Assembly (NCBI GenBank): GCA_964351925.1
Contig: CAYGQI010000001.1
Coordinates: 30,505 to 68,720, forward strand
DNA length: 38,216 nucleotides
Reading direction: 5' to 3'
From: an uncultured Anaerolineales bacterium
GTDB lineage: Bacteria; Chloroflexota; Anaerolineae; UBA7937; B3-Chlor
The translations under genes were made by a program, and so were the position numbers. Below, piece after piece: positions 25,535 to 28,650 of this stretch. Within the stretch, counting starts at the first letter, position 1. Every line of letters begins with the position of its first letter. The notes below the pieces were generated by a model. That model did no database searches, was not told the origin of the DNA, and saw only the letters and a program-made list of their open reading frames with translations.

Positions 25535-25563
25535 TTGACAAACCTCAAAAAGAGGTGTATTCT
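25535..25563 (+). promoter_or_regulatory. Sigma70-like promoter for the tRNA array
   Basis: TTGACA (25535-25540), 17-nt spacer, TATTCT (25558-25563). The first tRNA starts at 25573. Confidence 0.55.
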
Positions 25564-25572
25564 TAGACAGTC

Positions 25573-25645
25573 CGAGGAATGGTGTAGACCGGGAGCACGC
25601 TAGCCCTGGGAGCTAGTGGCGGTGGTTCAAACCCACCTTCTTCGA
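25573..25645 (+). tRNA. tRNA-Pro(TGG)
   Basis: Acceptor CGAGGAA/TTCTTCG. D GTGT/GCAC. AC stem CTAGC/GCTAG, loop CCTGGGA (C33). T arm GGTGG-TTCAAAC-CCACC. Confidence 0.75.
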
Positions 25646-25647
25646 CC

Positions 25648-25720
25648 TGCGGGTTAAGTTGGAGTGGAACCACGGTGGCCTCATAAGCCGCGTAGACGAG
25701 TTCAATTCTCGTACCCGCTA
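25648..25720 (+). tRNA. tRNA-Met(CAT) type (Met, fMet or Ile2 not resolved)
   Basis: AC stem GTGGC/GCCGC, loop CTCATAA. T arm ACGAG-TTCAATT-CTCGT. Acceptor GCGGGT/ACCCGC with an unpaired 1:72 or an irregular acceptor-D junction. Confidence 0.6.
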
Positions 25721-25727
25721 CCTTCAT

Positions 25728-25799
25728 ACCAGAGTGGCGCAACGGTAGCGCAAGCCGCTGTTAACGGCGAGGTTGCAGGTCCGAATCCTGCCTTTGGTG
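25728..25799 (+). tRNA. tRNA-Asn(GTT)
   Basis: Acceptor ACCAGAG/CTTTGGT. D GCGC/GCGC. Loop CTGTTAA. T arm GCAGG-TCCGAAT-CCTGC. CCA encoded. Confidence 0.85.
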
Positions 25800-25847
25800 C
25801 CAAGAAGTCGAGTACCGCTTACCTTTACAACTGATCGGCAATAACAG

Positions 25848-25920
25848 GCCAGTGAAGCACAATCGGCAGTGCGGTCGCCCTGTAAGCGACAGGCAGTGGG
25901 TTCGACTCCCACCTCTGGCT
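25848..25920 (+). tRNA. tRNA-Thr(TGT)
   Basis: Acceptor GCCAGTG/CTCTGGC (one mismatch). D GCAC/GTGC. AC GTCGC/GCGAC, loop CCTGTAA (C33). T arm GTGGG-TTCGACT-CCCAC. Confidence 0.8.
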
Positions 25921-25988
25921 CCTGAGAGTTCTGCACATCAGCGTTGAAATCTGGCTGTTCTCACGGCGCGCTAAAGAGACAGCAACAC

Positions 25989-26060
25989 GCAGGCATGGGG
26001 TAAAGGATAGCCCAGCACCCTCCTAAGGTGCGTGTGAGCGTTCGAGTCGCTCTGCTTGCT
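25989..26060 (+). tRNA. tRNA-Arg(CCT)
   Basis: Acceptor GCAGGCA/TGCTTGC. AC GCACC/GGTGC, loop CTCCTAA. T arm GAGCG-TTCGAGT-CGCTC. Confidence 0.85.
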
Positions 26061-26064
26061 CCTT

Positions 26065-26136
26065 GCTTCTGTAGATAACGGACAGTCGCTCCGGCTTCTA
26101 ACCGGATGAGTGCAGGTTCGAATCCTGCCAGAAGCT
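26065..26136 (+). tRNA. tRNA-Arg(TCT)
   Basis: Acceptor GCTTCTG/CAGAAGC. AC TCCGG/CCGGA, loop CTTCTAA. T arm GCAGG-TTCGAAT-CCTGC. Weak D stem. Confidence 0.75.
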
Positions 26137-26202
26137 CCTGCCGGGGGTCTCTCTTTGAGAGCACGGCGTCCGAAATTCCCTCTGCCCCCGAGGGTCGGCT
26201 AC

Positions 26203-26273
26203 GCATCTGTAGGCTAATGGATGACCGTTGGGCCACGGACCCAAAGGTGAGCGTTCAAGTCGCTCCAGATGCT
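26203..26273 (+). tRNA. tRNA-Arg(ACG)
   Basis: Acceptor GCATCTG/CAGATGC. AC TTGGG/CCCAA, loop CCACGGA (C33). T arm GAGCG-TTCAAGT-CGCTC. Confidence 0.75.
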
Positions 26274-26317
26274 CCTGTGGAAATTGACAGAGTCACCACT
26301 CAAAGAACTGTCCACAC

Positions 26318-26389
26318 AGACTGTTCGTCTAGCGGCCAGGATAAGCGTCTCCAAAACGTTTGACGGGGGTTCGAGTCCCTCACGGTCTG
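26318..26389 (+). tRNA. tRNA-Trp(CCA)
   Basis: Acceptor AGACTGT/ACGGTCT. D GTCT/GGAT. AC AGCGT/ACGTT, loop CTCCAAA. T arm GGGGG-TTCGAGT-CCCTC. Confidence 0.8.
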
Positions 26390-26395
26390 CCTCGT

Positions 26396-26468
26396 TAGGT
26401 GGTGGTGTAACCGGCAAGCACAGTAGGCTGTGGACCTGCGGGAGAGGGTTCAAGGCCCTCCCATCTGA
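26396..26468 (+). tRNA. tRNA-His(GTG)
   Basis: Acceptor TAGGTGG/CCATCTG. D GTGT/GCAC. AC GTAGG/CCTGC, loop CTGTGGA. T arm GAGGG-TTCAAGG-CCCTC. The -1 position is T opposite A73, not G-1:C73. Confidence 0.8.
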
Positions 26469-26502
26469 CCTAGCAAGAATAGTCACTTAAAGTGACTACA
26501 AT

Positions 26503-26573
26503 GGTTCTGTGGCGTAACGGCAGCGCAACTCCCTGTCGAGGAGTAGGCGAGGGATCGACACCCTTCAGGACCG
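26503..26573 (+). tRNA. tRNA-Asp(GTC)
   Basis: Acceptor GGTTCTG/CAGGACC. D GCGT/GCGC. AC ACTCC/GGAGT, loop CTGTCGA. T arm GAGGG-ATCGACA-CCCTT (A54). Confidence 0.8.
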
Positions 26574-26578
26574 CCTTT

Positions 26579-26650
26579 GGGCGCGTGATGTCAACGGGAG
26601 CATGCTGCACCTGCAATGCAGCCGTGGGAGTTCAAATCTCCCCGTGTCCA
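26579..26650 (+). tRNA. tRNA-Ala(TGC)
   Basis: Acceptor GGGCGCG/CGTGTCC with the G3:U70 alanine identity pair. AC CTGCA/TGCAG, loop CCTGCAA (C33). T arm GGGAG-TTCAAAT-CTCCC. Confidence 0.85.
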
Positions 26651-26657
26651 CCTTCAT

Positions 26658-26728
26658 TCAAGAGTCGGCTAACGGTAGGCCGTAGGGCCTTGGACCCTAC
26701 TGTGGAGGTCCGAATCCTTCCTCTTGAA
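26658..26728 (+). tRNA. tRNA-Gln(TTG)
   Basis: Acceptor TCAAGAG/CTCTTGA (U1:A72). D GGCT/GGCC. AC TAGGG/CCCTA, loop CCTTGGA (C33). T arm GGAGG-TCCGAAT-CCTTC. Confidence 0.8.
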
Positions 26729-26733
26729 CCTAC

Positions 26734-26818
26734 GGAGTGGTGGCAGAGCGGCTGAATGCGCTTCCCCGCTAAGGAAGTTGGGGTAACTCCCACGTTGGTT
26801 CGAATCCAACCCTCTCCG
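26734..26818 (+). tRNA. tRNA-Ser(GCT)
   Basis: Acceptor GGAGTGG/CCTCTCC (one mismatch). AC CTTCC/GGAAG, loop CCGCTAA (C33). Long variable arm TTGGGGTAACTCCCAC. T arm GTTGG-TTCGAAT-CCAAC. Confidence 0.8.
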
Positions 26819-26824
26819 CCTCGT

Positions 26825-26894
26825 GGATGTATGGTGTAACGGTGCACGCATGACTGTAGATCATCAGGGCGTGGTTCGACTCCACGTGCATCCA
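26825..26894 (+). tRNA. tRNA-Tyr(GTA), short variable arm
   Basis: Acceptor GGATGTA/TGCATCC. D GTGT/GCAC. Loop CTGTAGA. 4-nt variable region. T arm CGTGG-TTCGACT-CCACG. A73. Confidence 0.75.
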
Positions 26895-26901
26895 CCTTCG
26901 A

Positions 26902-26972
26902 TCTCTCCTAGTGCAACGGTAGCACGCTTGGCTCTGAACCAAGTAATCTACGTCCGAATCGTGGGGAGAGAA
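26902..26972 (+). tRNA. tRNA-Gln(CTG)
   Basis: Acceptor TCTCTCC/GGAGAGA (U1:A72). D GTGC/GCAC. AC CTTGG/CCAAG, loop CTCTGAA. T arm CTACG-TCCGAAT-CGTGG. Confidence 0.85.
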
Positions 26973-26977
26973 CCTAT

Positions 26978-27050
26978 GCCGCTGAAGCTAACCCAGTGGA
27001 AGCGTCTGCCTGAAGAGCAGAAGGGGTCGGCGCGACACCGACTGGCGGCA
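26978..27050 (+). tRNA. tRNA-Phe(GAA)
   Basis: Acceptor GCCGCTG/TGGCGGC. AC TCTGC/GCAGA, loop CTGAAGA. T arm GTCGG-CGCGACA-CCGAC (non-canonical T-loop). Confidence 0.75.
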
Positions 27051-27056
27051 CCTTAC

Positions 27057-27143
27057 GGAAGAGCTAACATCGGTGTGTGCAGCCGTCTTGAAAACGGTAG
27101 TCCGGTGAAACCCGGATTGGGAGTTCAACTCTCTCCTCTTCCG
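27057..27143 (+). tRNA. tRNA-Ser(TGA)
   Basis: Acceptor GGAAGAG/CTCTTCC. AC GCCGT/ACGGT, loop CTTGAAA. Long variable arm with a CCGG/CCGG stem. T arm GGGAG-TTCAACT-CTCTC. Irregular D arm. Confidence 0.75.
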
Positions 27144-27148
27144 CCTCT

Positions 27149-27219
27149 GGCTTCTAGTCCGAACGGCTAGGAAGTCGCCTGCAAAGCGACCGTAGAGAGT
27201 TCGACTCTCTCAGAAGCCT
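27149..27219 (+). tRNA. tRNA-Cys(GCA)
   Basis: Acceptor GGCTTCT/AGAAGCC. AC GTCGC/GCGAC, loop CTGCAAA. T arm GAGAG-TTCGACT-CTCTC. Discriminator U73. Confidence 0.85.
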
Positions 27220-27225
27220 CCTCGT

Positions 27226-27300
27226 GCGCCCATAGGAGAATCGGCATATCCGCTGGTCTTAGAAACCAGGTCAATGGTGGTTCGAATCCACCTGGGCGTA
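27226..27300 (+). tRNA. tRNA-Leu(TAG), short variable arm
   Basis: Acceptor GCGCCCA/TGGGCGT. AC CTGGT/ACCAG, loop CTTAGAA. 6-nt variable region. T arm GGTGG-TTCGAAT-CCACC. A73. CCA encoded. Confidence 0.75.
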
Positions 27301-27381
27301 CCAAAAGGCCCTCGGAAGTACAACGGGTGGTCGGCACAACAGTGCCTTCTGGCTTGGGGACGCCAAAAACAATCCCCACCA

Positions 27382-27456
27382 GCATCCTGGCCGGTAAGGT
27401 GATCGGAGACTGTCTTATAAACAGTCCACAATCTGGTCCGATGCCAGAAGGATGCA
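27382..27456 (+). tRNA. tRNA-Ile(TAT)
   Basis: Acceptor GCATCCT/AGGATGC. D CCGG/TCGG. AC GACTG(T)/(A)CAGTC, loop CTTATAA. T arm TCTGG-TCCGATG-CCAGA. Confidence 0.7.
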
Positions 27457-27461
27457 CCTAT

Positions 27462-27532
27462 GGTCTCATCCGCTAAAGGGAGGCGAGCGGCCCCTCAAGC
27501 CGCAAATGCGATTTCGAGATTCGCTGAGACCA
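27462..27532 (+). tRNA. tRNA-Glu(CTC)
   Basis: Acceptor GGTCTCA/TGAGACC. D CGCT/GGCG. AC GCGGC/GCCGC, loop CCCTCAA (C33). T arm GCGAT-TTCGAGA-TTCGC with a U.U at the loop-closing pair. Confidence 0.7.
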
Positions 27533-27537
27533 CCTAC

Positions 27538-27610
27538 GTCACCATCGTCTAACGGTTCAGGATGGGACCCTTTCAAGGTCTGGATCGGAGTTCGAATCTC
27601 CGTGGTGATA
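27538..27610 (+). tRNA. tRNA-Glu(TTC)
   Basis: Acceptor GTCACCA/TGGTGAT. AC GGACC/GGTCT, loop CTTTCAA. T arm CGGAG-TTCGAAT-CTCCG. Confidence 0.8.
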
Positions 27611-27615
27611 CCTGC

Positions 27616-27687
27616 GCATTCGTAGCTGAGCGGTAAAGCAGTTCGTTGCCAACGAACAGATCGTGGGTCCAAATCCCACCGAATGCT
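27616..27687 (+). tRNA. tRNA-Gly(GCC)
   Basis: Acceptor GCATTCG/CGAATGC. AC GTTCG/CGAAC, loop TTGCCAA. T arm GTGGG-TCCAAAT-CCCAC. Confidence 0.85.
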
Positions 27688-27693
27688 CCTCGT

Positions 27694-27767
27694 GCCTGTG
27701 TAGCTCAATTGGTCAGAGCGCTTCTCCTACAAAGAAGAGGCTGGTGGTTCGAGCCCACCCAGAGGCA
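27694..27767 (+). tRNA. tRNA-Val(TAC)
   Basis: Acceptor GCCTGTG/CAGAGGC (one mismatch). D GCTC/GAGC. AC CTTCT/AGAAG, loop CCTACAA (C33). T arm GGTGG-TTCGAGC-CCACC. Confidence 0.8.
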
Positions 27768-27771
27768 CCTT

Positions 27772-27846
27772 GCTCTCATAGCCCAACATGGCAGAGGCGG
27801 CAGCTTCAAAACCTGTCCAGTGCTAGTTCGAATCTAGCTGGGAGCA
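27772..27846 (+). tRNA. tRNA-Leu(CAA), short variable arm (anticodon-arm register uncertain)
   Basis: Acceptor GCTCTCA/TGGGAGC. AC GCAGC/CCTGT (C31.C39 mismatch), loop TTCAAAA. An alternative fold gives a 9-nt loop. T arm GCTAG-TTCGAAT-CTAGC. A73. Confidence 0.6.
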
Positions 27847-28027
27847 CCTGCGGCTGAGACTCGGTGAAACGCCGAGGGAAGGGAGAACAAACCGGAAAGT
27901 AGACGGTCTCCTGTGCGTAAGTGGGAAACTCGACCCAGAGTAGCGAGGGTGTCCAGCGGTGAATGGGTATTGCCAGCGCAAGCCCCTACTGGGCGGTGAC
28001 ACCGAAACCCACCTTGAGGCCGCACAT
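27847..28027 (+). ncRNA. Unclassified structured RNA embedded in the tRNA array (not a tRNA)
   Basis: 181 nt between two complete tRNAs with no plausible + strand ORF. Terminal helix TGCGGC (27849-54)/GCCGCA (28019-24). Internal hairpins: CTCGG-TGAAACG-CCGAG (27860-76), GGAGA..CCG-GAAAGTAGA-CGG..TCTCC (27882-911), GGTGTC (27948-53)/GACACC (27998-28003) enclosing TTGC-CAGC-GCAA (27970-81). Confidence 0.5.
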
Positions 28028-28100
28028 GCTCTGCGAGCCAGTCGGTCGAAGGCACTCGTCTGATACACGAGTTTGCGTGGTTCAACTCCACGGCGGAGCA
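28028..28100 (+). tRNA. tRNA-Ile(GAT)
   Basis: Acceptor GCTCTGC/GCGGAGC. AC CTCGT/ACGAG, loop CTGATAC. T arm CGTGG-TTCAACT-CCACG. Confidence 0.8.
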
Positions 28101-28139
28101 CCTGTTTCAGTTGTTTAGCAATATTGCTAAACATCTCAT

Positions 28140-28211
28140 ACCAGCATAGCTCAGATGGAGAGCAAGCGGCCTTTACCCGCGAGGTCGGGGACCCGAGCCC
28201 CCCTGCTGGTA
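28140..28211 (+). tRNA. tRNA-Lys(TTT)
   Basis: Acceptor ACCAGCA/TGCTGGT. D GCTC/GAGC. AC (A)GCGG/CCGC(G), loop CCTTTAC (C33). Aberrant T arm GGGGA-CCCGAGC-CCCCC. Confidence 0.65.
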
Positions 28212-28218
28212 CCTAAAT

Positions 28219-28291
28219 GCTTCTGTGGCGCAATCGGCAGCGCAACCGGCCCTTAACCGGAAGGCTGGAGGATCATACCCTCCCAGGAGCA
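28219..28291 (+). tRNA. tRNA-Lys(CTT)
   Basis: Acceptor GCTTCTG/CAGGAGC. D GCGC/GCGC. AC (A)CCGG/CCGG(A), loop CCCTTAA (C33). T arm GGAGG-ATCATAC-CCTCC (A54). Confidence 0.75.
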
Positions 28292-28296
28292 CCTGT

Positions 28297-28369
28297 GCTT
28301 CGGTAGTTGAGTAGGCAAAACACCCCTTTCGTAAAGGGGAGGACAGAGGTTCGAAGCCTCTCCGAAGCT
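28297..28369 (+). tRNA. tRNA-Thr(CGT)
   Basis: Acceptor GCTTCGG/CCGAAGC. AC CCCCT/AGGGG, loop TTCGTAA. T arm AGAGG-TTCGAAG-CCTCT. Confidence 0.85.
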
Positions 28370-28455
28370 CCTTGGGTAAGGCTCCTAGCCGACACGGCAT
28401 CAGGCGCGGGGCTGACCGATGGGACATAACCGTGGATCACCCCATCTCCCAACAT

Positions 28456-28528
28456 GCCACTGTAGCTCAGCCGGTAGAGCGCCGACTCGGTAAGTCGGAG
28501 GCCGACGGATCATCACCGTCCTGTGGCT
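28456..28528 (+). tRNA. tRNA-Thr(GGT)
   Basis: Acceptor GCCACTG/CTGTGGC (one mismatch). D GCTC/GAGC. AC CCGAC/GTCGG, loop TCGGTAA (C33). T arm GACGG-ATCATCA-CCGTC (A54). Confidence 0.8.
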
Positions 28529-28533
28529 CCTAT

Positions 28534-28604
28534 GCGGGCTTGGTATATGGGTTGTGCCTCAGCCTTCCAAGCTGATGAAGCGAGTCCGAATCTCGCAGCC
28601 CGCT
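28534..28604 (+). tRNA. tRNA-Gly(TCC)
   Basis: Acceptor GCGGGCT/AGCCCGC. AC TCAGC/GCTGA, loop CTTCCAA. T arm GCGAG-TCCGAAT-CTCGC. CCA encoded. Confidence 0.85.
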
Positions 28605-28615
28605 CCAAGAAAGAG

Positions 28616-28650
28616 AAGACCCCAGGTTGTTTGCCTGGGGTCTTTTCGTT
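28616..28650. terminator. Bidirectional intrinsic terminator between the convergent tRNA array and the - strand operon
   Basis: AAGACCCCAGG-TTGTTTG-CCTGGGGTCTT: 11-bp perfect stem. TTTCGTTT follows on the + strand and a T-rich CTCTTTCTT follows on the - strand. Confidence 0.8.

Follow-up and report, generated by a model that had tools for sequence, protein, structure and literature searches.

Knowledge of how bacterial tRNA 3' ends mature rests on few model species, in which precursors with an encoded CCA are handled by exonucleases and those without it by RNase Z followed by CCA addition. Charging of a tRNA requires its terminal A (position 76, A76). The tRNA cluster of phage T4 comprises 8 genes with mixed ends, some of which lack CCA and need the host RNase BN/Z and CCA-adding enzyme, and in Aquifex, Deinococcus and cyanobacteria the addition of CC and that of A are split between two enzymes. 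Bacterial lineages vary in the frequency with which their tRNA genes template CCA, initiator genes doing so most often (Ardell and Hou 2016, PMC5143459). A uracil no more than 2 nt downstream of the discriminator base (position 73) stimulates the RNase Z of Bacillus subtilis ~200-fold, and the enzyme trims back with a 3' exonuclease activity of its own (PMC10100781). The uracil occupies a dedicated pocket needed for hydrolysis (PMC11649783). Here we describe an array of 31 phage tRNA genes, located in a 38,216-nt stretch of DNA (hereafter the window) from the contig CAYGQI010000001.1 (C1) of an uncultured Anaerolineales bacterium (assembly GCA_964351925.1), whose 3' ends fall between the two classes.

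All 31 genes lie on the + strand between positions 25573 and 28607, and together they cover the 20 amino acids. Positions 74-76 read CCT in 28 of them and CCA in the other three, Asn(GTT), Leu(TAG) and Gly(TCC), exactly as a preliminary reading of the DNA alone (hereafter the sequence-only reading) had claimed. C is thus present at both positions 74 and 75 in 31/31 genes, and position 76 is T in 28 cases and A in 3. Short spacers recur, namely CCTCGT four times, CCTAT three times, CCTAC twice and CCTTCAT twice, the first three of which had also been listed in that reading.

We established the gene boundaries by several means. ARAGORN called 28 tRNAs in the array. The Rfam tRNA model confirmed most of these calls and added Phe(GAA) at 26978-27050 and Lys(TTT) at 28140-28211, and the 31st gene, Glu(CTC) at 27462-27532, missed by both programs, is a cloverleaf with a 7-bp acceptor stem. 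Because the Rfam model stops at the discriminator and its ends match those of ARAGORN, position 73 is fixed by two independent methods. In the called register, 6 or 7 of the 7 acceptor pairs form in each of the 31 genes. The agreement of ARAGORN, Rfam and acceptor-stem pairing rules out a boundary artefact, and the CCT pattern, which the sequence-only reading expected to vanish if corrected boundaries shifted the trailers, stays in place. Position 33 is C rather than the near-universal U in Glu(CTC), Lys(TTT) and Val(TAC) (27694-27767), which accounts for ARAGORN missing the first two and miscalling the third as Cys(ACA). Read directly, the anticodon loop of the latter is CCTACAA. In the 178-nt spacer between Leu(CAA) and Ile(GAT) (27850-28027), we found no tRNA or Rfam match at E <= 1.

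The CCT pattern is real and under selection. Given the composition of the array (T 21%), the chance that all 28 non-A bases at position 76 are T is ~7e-17. Conservation ends there, as position 77 is unconstrained (T9/A9/G8/C5). BLAST detected no mutual similarity between the phage tRNAs beyond 19-nt pieces of the T arm, nor any similarity to the tRNAs of the metagenome-assembled genome (MAG) to which C1 belongs, which rules out recent duplication. The tRNA bodies having diverged past BLAST detection while CC persists in 31/31 and T in 28/31 genes, the triplet must be maintained and not left over from recent copies, and the earlier remark that such regularity is unlikely to be drift holds.

The genes are tightly packed, with a gap of at most 4 nt between position 76 and the next tRNA at 21 of the 30 junctions. 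Counted from U76, the trailer is 1-5 nt long in 21 of the 28 CCT tRNAs, tRNA-Pro included. U76 is kept both where the next tRNA is 0-4 nt away and in 7/7 CCT genes followed by long spacers (31-178 nt). Its presence whatever the distance to the neighbour shows that it is part of the upstream tRNA end and not of the next leader. The base at position -1 of the tRNAs is T in 19/31 cases, which fits the known leader preference of RNase P and is a signal separate from U76. In the three CCA genes, a purine-rich, U-free run comes next (AGAAG, AAAGG and AGAAAGAGAAG; 25800-25810, 27301-27311 and 28605-28620, respectively) and adjoins a long spacer or a terminator; there is no such bias after CCT genes.

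At the first junction, the T of the CCT of tRNA-Pro (25648) doubles as nucleotide 1 of the following tRNA-Met, and RNase P alone would therefore leave tRNA-Pro ending in ...A-CC. Of note, this tRNA-Met(CAT) (25648-25720) has an unpaired U1xU72 in place of the usual C1xA72 of bacterial initiators. The same U1xU72 is found in the initiator tRNA of the MAG (G000:C318:676-750) and in Met tRNAs of three CCT-type arrays of other phages described below (L080 3806-3881, L162 3215-3289 and L164 13417-13491), and the Met tRNA of a fourth array, L175, has A1xC72. The phage Met(CAT) copies are devoid of the GGG:CCC anticodon-stem mark of initiators.

The 3' ends encode CC but not the terminal A, which makes a uniform removal of the trailers followed by the addition of A or CCA a necessity, as had been deduced from the sequence. 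It is certain that A76 must be added post-transcriptionally to the products of the 28 CCT genes. We looked for the enzymes that might do so. On C1, searches with PF01743, TIGR02651 and PF01909 and Pfam scans of the larger open reading frames revealed no CCA-adding enzyme, A-adding enzyme or RNase Z, and five records of other phages with CCT arrays, including a complete 96-kb genome, gave no PolyA_pol (PF01743) or Lactamase_B_2 (PF12706) match. Since charging requires A76 and no phage enzyme turned up, the host CCA-adding enzyme almost certainly supplies it. The check proposed in the sequence-only reading, namely whether phage or host encodes a CCA-adding enzyme or RNase Z, thus finds neither on the phage contig and both in the putative host clade.

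C1 is a phage by gene content. Its + strand carries capsid, tail and lysis genes, and a convergent replication module on the - strand encodes an exonuclease, a methyltransferase, a PD-(D/E)XK nuclease, a RecA-like protein and PolA; genes for a primase-like protein and an SNF2 helicase lie upstream. The window is the final 38 kb of this 68.7-kb contig, which belongs to a 2.2-Mb MAG (387 contigs, 83% complete) of an Anaerolineae/Anaerolineales bacterium (Chloroflexota). As we found no terminal repeats on C1, it may be incomplete. The G+C content is 57% for C1 and ~60% for the remainder of the bin. The Anaerolineae bacterium of the bin is the probable host, on the basis of binning and shared tRNA habits.

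Relatives of the phage are distant. A megablast search among phages gave no match to it, its PolA matches are all below 30% identity and its capsid protein has no match in IMG/VR, but its exonuclease has relatives at 35-53% identity. The closest syntenic relative, L270 (a 17.6-kb contig of Logan SRR22452315), has an exonuclease 53% identical to that of C1 and keeps the order PolA-UDG-RecA-PDDEXK-methyltransferase-exonuclease. Where the C1 phage has its 3-kb array, L270 has ~100 nt and no tRNA, indicating that the array is a gained or lost module and that such arrays come and go. The loci L272-L275, L268, L269 and L002-L004 contain no tRNAs or two. Nucleotide, PolA, capsid and exonuclease searches thus yielded no close phage relatives in whose orthologous tRNAs the trailers could be tracked.

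Coordinates of the tRNA array and flanking features in the window. Gene boundaries follow ARAGORN/Rfam and the acceptor-stem register; positions include the CCT or CCA.
Feature	Position	Strand	3' end and what follows	Evidence or remark
Promoter-like site TTGACA, 17 nt, TATTCT	25535..25563	+	10 nt before first tRNA	consensus match only
tRNA array, 31 genes	25573..28607	+		ARAGORN, Rfam, folding
tRNA-Pro(TGG), 25573-25645	25573..25648	+	CC 25646-25647; T 25648 shared with next tRNA	
tRNA-Met(CAT), U1xU72	25648..25723	+	CCT 25721-25723	
tRNA-Asn(GTT), exception	25728..25802	+	CCA 25800-25802; then AGAAG, 45-nt spacer	
tRNA-Thr(TGT)	25848..25923	+	CCT 25921-25923; 65-nt spacer	
tRNA-Arg(CCT)	25989..26063	+	CCT 26061-26063	
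tRNA-Arg(TCT)	26065..26139	+	CCT 26137-26139; 63-nt spacer	
tRNA-Arg(ACG)	26203..26276	+	CCT 26274-26276; 41-nt spacer	
tRNA-Trp(CCA)	26318..26392	+	CCT 26390-26392; spacer CGT	
tRNA-His(GTG)	26396..26471	+	CCT 26469-26471; 31-nt spacer	
tRNA-Asp(GTC)	26503..26576	+	CCT 26574-26576	
tRNA-Ala(TGC)	26579..26653	+	CCT 26651-26653	
tRNA-Gln(TTG)	26658..26731	+	CCT 26729-26731	
tRNA-Ser(GCT)	26734..26821	+	CCT 26819-26821; spacer CGT	
tRNA-Tyr(GTA)	26825..26897	+	CCT 26895-26897	
tRNA-Gln(CTG)	26902..26975	+	CCT 26973-26975	
tRNA-Phe(GAA)	26978..27053	+	CCT 27051-27053	Rfam; missed by ARAGORN
tRNA-Ser(TGA)	27057..27146	+	CCT 27144-27146	
tRNA-Cys(GCA)	27149..27222	+	CCT 27220-27222; spacer CGT	
tRNA-Leu(TAG), exception	27226..27303	+	CCA 27301-27303; then AAAGG, 78-nt spacer	
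tRNA, anticodon TAT (called Ile)	27382..27459	+	CCT 27457-27459	
tRNA-Glu(CTC), C33	27462..27535	+	CCT 27533-27535	cloverleaf, 7-bp acceptor stem; missed by both programs
tRNA-Glu(TTC)	27538..27613	+	CCT 27611-27613	
tRNA-Gly(GCC)	27616..27690	+	CCT 27688-27690; spacer CGT	
tRNA-Val(TAC), C33	27694..27770	+	CCT 27768-27770	miscalled Cys(ACA) by ARAGORN
tRNA-Leu(CAA)	27772..27849	+	CCT 27847-27849; 178-nt structured spacer	
tRNA-Ile(GAT)	28028..28103	+	CCT 28101-28103; 36-nt spacer	
tRNA-Lys(TTT), C33	28140..28214	+	CCT 28212-28214	Rfam only
tRNA-Lys(CTT)	28219..28294	+	CCT 28292-28294	
tRNA-Thr(CGT)	28297..28372	+	CCT 28370-28372; 83-nt spacer	
tRNA-Thr(GGT)	28456..28531	+	CCT 28529-28531	
tRNA-Gly(TCC), last gene, exception	28534..28607	+	CCA 28605-28607; then AGAAAGAGAAG, terminator	
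11-bp G+C-rich hairpin, T runs on both sides	28616..28644	.		sequence; likely terminator

The hairpin that follows the array is likely a two-way terminator, predicted to serve both the array transcript and the convergent exonuclease gene. As for the promoter-like site upstream, chance alone would give 0.9 such sites in the region.

We then compared the trailers with those of the putative host clade. Among the 30 usable tRNA genes of the MAG, 7 are followed by CCA, 6 by CCT, 9 by CT plus any base and 5 by a sequence starting with T, with 3 others. T is the first departure from CCA in 20 of the 23 genes that depart from it. CC-type genes amount to 31/31 in the phage vs 13/30 in the MAG, and CCT genes to 28/31 vs 6/30 (Fisher p = 2e-8). 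CCA follows all three Met(CAT) genes detected in the MAG, the initiator among them. We also searched 12 relatives (8 congeners and 4 members of the same order, which are non-independent samples) with a T-arm-anchored pattern, such pattern searches being judged by reversed-pattern controls instead of E-values. CC followed by A, C or T gave ~230 matches; among the matches listed, ~35-50% per genome are CCT and nearly all others CCA, CCC being rare. CCG gave 4 matches, vs 8 for the reversed-pattern control. Orthologues swap CCA and CCT between congeners, as seen for Ser(TGA), Thr(CGT), Ser(CGA) and an elongator Met. In a broader set of 70 Chloroflexota genomes, CCT genes were present in every sampled Anaerolineae genome and in several other families, with none in further families. 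The presence of A or U, and almost never G or C, at position 76 is thus a lineage habit of cellular tRNA genes, from which the phage differs in degree. Far from being special to the phage, the CCT pattern is a habit of its putative host clade that the array has carried to an extreme.

The habit extends to other phage arrays. We scanned IMG/VR for T-arm-plus-CCT patterns and ran ARAGORN on the loci found; because these were chosen for at least one CCT, their CCT counts are inflated, but the bimodality of the distribution is not. Of the 58 arrays sampled that have 8 or more tRNAs, five show a CCT share of 60-100% and all others are at or below 33%. The five are L164 (18/18), L162 (27/28), L146 (7/8), L080 (23/27, a complete 96-kb genome) and L175 (12/20), with G+C contents of 38-44%. 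L164 has the gene order of L162 and near-identical tRNAs, and L175 has the gene order of L080; the two orders differ from each other and from that of the window array. The PolA proteins of these phages are 25-26% identical to that of the window phage, no capsid match between them was found, and only L175 shares the exonuclease with it, at 45% identity. They are thus at most distant kin of the window phage. Since arrays come and go, the processing machinery of the hosts accounts better than common descent of the phages for the CCT habit that they share.

Other arrays follow different habits. Nearly all genes end in CCA in L086, L103 and L076, and CAA is frequent in L077 (12/19 genes) and L081 (7/13 genes). 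Orthologous tRNAs swap CCT, CCA, CTT and CAA between L162 and L164 and between L080 and L175. Across 990 other viral tRNAs, T is the commonest first departure from CCA, accounting for 235 of the 276 that occur at position 74 and 229 of the 369 that occur at position 75. Of note, A nearly always comes after CCT in L162 and L164 (CCTAT, CCTAA, CCTAC), vs the unconstrained position 77 of the window array.

The putative host clade has the machinery for more than one processing route. In the MAG, we found a single PF01743 (PolyA_pol) match, an 886-aa DHH-DHHA1-CBS-PolyA_pol fusion protein encoded on contig C3 (L001 670-3330). Fusions of this type are present at 45-95% identity across many Anaerolineae MAGs, and other Chloroflexota have a stand-alone CCA-adding-type enzyme of ~440 residues and a second paralogue. 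We considered the fusion enzyme as a candidate for trimming the U, but there is no correlation: family f2, from the same class, has many CCT genes and the stand-alone ~440-residue enzyme, and families f14 and f23 have the fusion yet 0-2 CCT matches. A full-length RNase Z match was found in 12/12 relatives, at 265-283 bits, just under the 293-bit cut-off, and RNase PH is present in 13/13 genomes (the MAG and its 12 relatives). As the clade has both RNase Z and RNase PH, endonucleolytic and exonucleolytic routes are both open to the phage. A type-A RNase P RNA was found in the genus of the MAG.

On these grounds, we propose that U76 is under selection as a signal to a 3' nuclease of the host, the likeliest candidate being a uracil-activated RNase Z, and that the host CCA-adding enzyme completes the end. 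From the comparison of sequences and the analogy with B. subtilis, we give this proposal about an even chance of being correct. We infer each of three of its elements, a single transcript, an enzyme that reads U76 and an exact cut site. The array would be transcribed as one RNA that starts at the promoter-like site (25535) and stops at the hairpin (28616), a reading based on these two elements, the single strand and the short junctions. Host RNase P would then cut this RNA into single tRNAs, of which 28 would carry C74-C75 and a trailer beginning with U76. The host 3'-end nuclease, possibly RNase Z acting in the B. subtilis manner, would read U76, and the host CCA-adding enzyme would add the missing A, or rebuild the whole CCA if trimming reaches the discriminator. 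That CC never varies suggests a use for both Cs: either a cut between C75 and U76 retains them in the mature tRNA, or the precursor requires them. It would not be exotic for a cut to fall beyond position 73: archaeal RNase Z enzymes cut just past an encoded CCA (PMC7479834), and since they and the Thermotoga enzyme cut after CCA, the cut site can move.

The suggestion of the sequence-only reading that the U acts as a processing determinant therefore gains backing of a comparative kind, from the A-or-T rule at position 76 in the host clade with G at chance level, the dominance of T in the 990 viral tRNAs, the independent CCT arrays of other phages and the uracil stimulation of B. subtilis RNase Z (PMC10100781). 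The placement of T at the first departure from CCA, in the MAG as in the viral tRNAs, is what might be expected of a nuclease keyed on the first uracil. Relative to the substrates of the B. subtilis enzyme, U is found within reach of the discriminator, at position 76, in 28/31 genes.

Several points weigh against this proposal. The main one is that C74-C75, an anti-determinant absent from such substrates, is present in 31/31 genes. In eukaryotes (ELAC2), CCA owes its inhibition of RNase Z to CC, the third position being irrelevant, and human mitochondria fail to process a CCU trailer (PMC11649783); the RNase Z of B. subtilis is likewise blocked by CCA (PMC1874595). If the host RNase Z is blocked by CC in the same way, CCU precursors would escape it and be left to exonucleases. 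The MAG, 83% complete, yielded no full-length RNase Z, only a 260-aa metallo-β-lactamase protein without flexible arm. The CAA-rich phage arrays have no U in the triplet, so U is not a universal requirement. The phage–host link, which is probable, relies on binning and tRNA habits, and it is weakened by C1 being the tetranucleotide outlier of the bin and by the finding of no CRISPR or spacer-like matches between C1 and the other MAG contigs.

The alternative that survives best, which we regard as possible but on the unlikely side, dispenses with an endonuclease reading of U76. CC would block RNase Z, 3' exonucleases (RNase PH, PNPase, RNase R/II) would trim the short trailers after RNase P cleavage, and the CCA-adding enzyme would restore A76, U76 being either easily removed or favoured because A76 followed by extra bases is harmful. 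The role of CC as an RNase Z anti-determinant is documented (PMC11649783, PMC1874595), and CCA-containing precursors of B. subtilis mature via RNase PH, according to a study cited in PMC10100781. The MAG and 12/12 relatives have RNase PH, the trailers of 21 tRNAs span just 1-5 nt, and the free interchange of CCA and CCT among orthologues is as expected if one route serves both. However, this scenario leaves unexplained the strict choice of U over G and C at position 76 in a genome of 57-60% G+C, and we know of no need of distributive exonucleases for U. Nor does it account for 28/31 phage genes doing without an encoded CCA, which would be simpler.

It is unlikely that the pattern reflects RNase P alone, with CC kept for pairing with the RNase P RNA and T being the U that RNase P favours in the 5' leader of the closely packed tRNA downstream. 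The contact between RNase P and CCA is important in vivo in both Escherichia coli and B. subtilis (PMC1874595), the C74-C75 that it involves are present in all 31 precursors as opposed to 13/30 host genes, and the frequent T at position -1 would be in keeping with this idea. It could account for CC but not for U, which lies at a variable distance from the next tRNA and is kept before all 7 long spacers, and so is no -1 signal. In addition, the loop of the congener RNase P RNA that aligns with GGGUA, where the GGU site is expected, reads GUGAU, although confidence in the alignment is low there.

Even less probable is a strategy specific to the phage, in which omission of A76 would serve control or evasion, the tRNAs remaining inert until the host CCA-adding enzyme acts or their precursors being hidden from host factors directed at CCA ends. 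The excess of CCT genes in the phage over the binned host is in its favour, and toxins acting on tRNA acceptor ends exist, MenT being an example. But the host clade shows the habit in its own cellular tRNA genes, C1 and the five other CCT phage records yielded no linked phage enzyme, and the sequence holds no pointer to a defence context. Last, a historical accident, i.e., an array grown from one duplicated tRNA-plus-spacer unit ending in CCT and not yet decayed, is close to refuted: despite the repeated CCTCGT and CCTAT spacers and similar acceptor stems such as GCTTCTG in Arg(TCT) and Lys(CTT), the tRNA bodies are past BLAST detection, the sequences are random from position 77 on, and CCT dominates phage arrays of other gene orders and 38-44% G+C and is frequent in cellular genes of the host clade.

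Returning to U76 as a signal for a host nuclease, we tentatively extend the proposal to a third bacterial 3'-end route, which might operate in Anaerolineae and their phages, though we consider this version more likely wrong than right. An endonuclease, RNase Z or another, would cut just before the first uracil that follows a partial CCA, so that N73, N73-C or N73-CC remains for the CCA-adding enzyme to complete. CCU would be optimal, as it calls for one cut and one A, and phage arrays pressed for a fast supply of tRNAs would have converged on it separately. If U76 does mark a cut after C75, the cut site of a bacterial RNase Z would be set by the first uracil and not by the discriminator, and CC need not be an anti-determinant.

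CCU genes, with CC encoded and then U, and almost never G or C, belong to neither of the two textbook classes; they occur in the little-studied Chloroflexota and reach an extreme in several phage arrays. In the literature that we could access, in part, we found no prior description of the pattern: the survey of PMC5143459 is silent on CCU, and the phage tRNA papers retrieved are silent on trailers. The finding combines partial CCA templating with a putative uracil determinant. On a practical level, whether the trailers of an array are all CCT, all CCA, CAA-rich or mixed is cheap to read from the sequence; this trait may help to link uncultured phages to host groups, and it could serve to check tRNA boundaries in annotation.

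Compared with described systems, the array most resembles the CCA-less precursors of B. subtilis (Pellegrini et al. 2003, 2012, as related in PMC10100781 and PMC1874595). In both cases, no full CCA is encoded and a uracil lies within two nucleotides of the discriminator (here after exactly C, C). The order of events in B. subtilis, where RNase P acts first on long leaders and the CCA-adding enzyme last, is that predicted for the array, and a full-length RNase Z is present in 12/12 relatives of the putative host. The difference is that the intervening bases are always CC in the phage, whereas the pre-tRNA-Thr of B. subtilis has U74-A75-A76. Like the T4 cluster, the array would be co-transcribed and its 3' ends would rely on host trimming and CCA addition, but T4 shows no uniform CC-U rule across ~30 genes. 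Partial templating was described in the Ardell and Hou survey (PMC5143459), and the CCA of the Met(CAT) genes of the MAG, including the initiator, agrees with it; that survey scores CCA as present or absent and reports no CCU/CCT trailer or A-or-U-only rule at position 76. In lineages with split enzymes, tRNAs that stop at CC arise as normal intermediates and lack nothing but the A, as would be the case here; the MAG differs in that one PolyA_pol gene was found in it, and many Chloroflexota have two paralogues. An incompletely templated CCA (28/31 phage genes) coexists with a PolyA_pol enzyme encoded in the MAG. Finally, in Thermotoga maritima (TM-type RNase Z, PMC3161902) and in methanomicrobial archaea (PMC7479834), encoded 3' nucleotides are kept on the tRNA, as they would be here with a cut before U76. 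In those organisms the full CCA is encoded and no nucleotide needs to be added, unlike in the phage, which has it in only 3/31 genes; with A76 missing from the other 28, a nucleotidyltransferase step is unavoidable.

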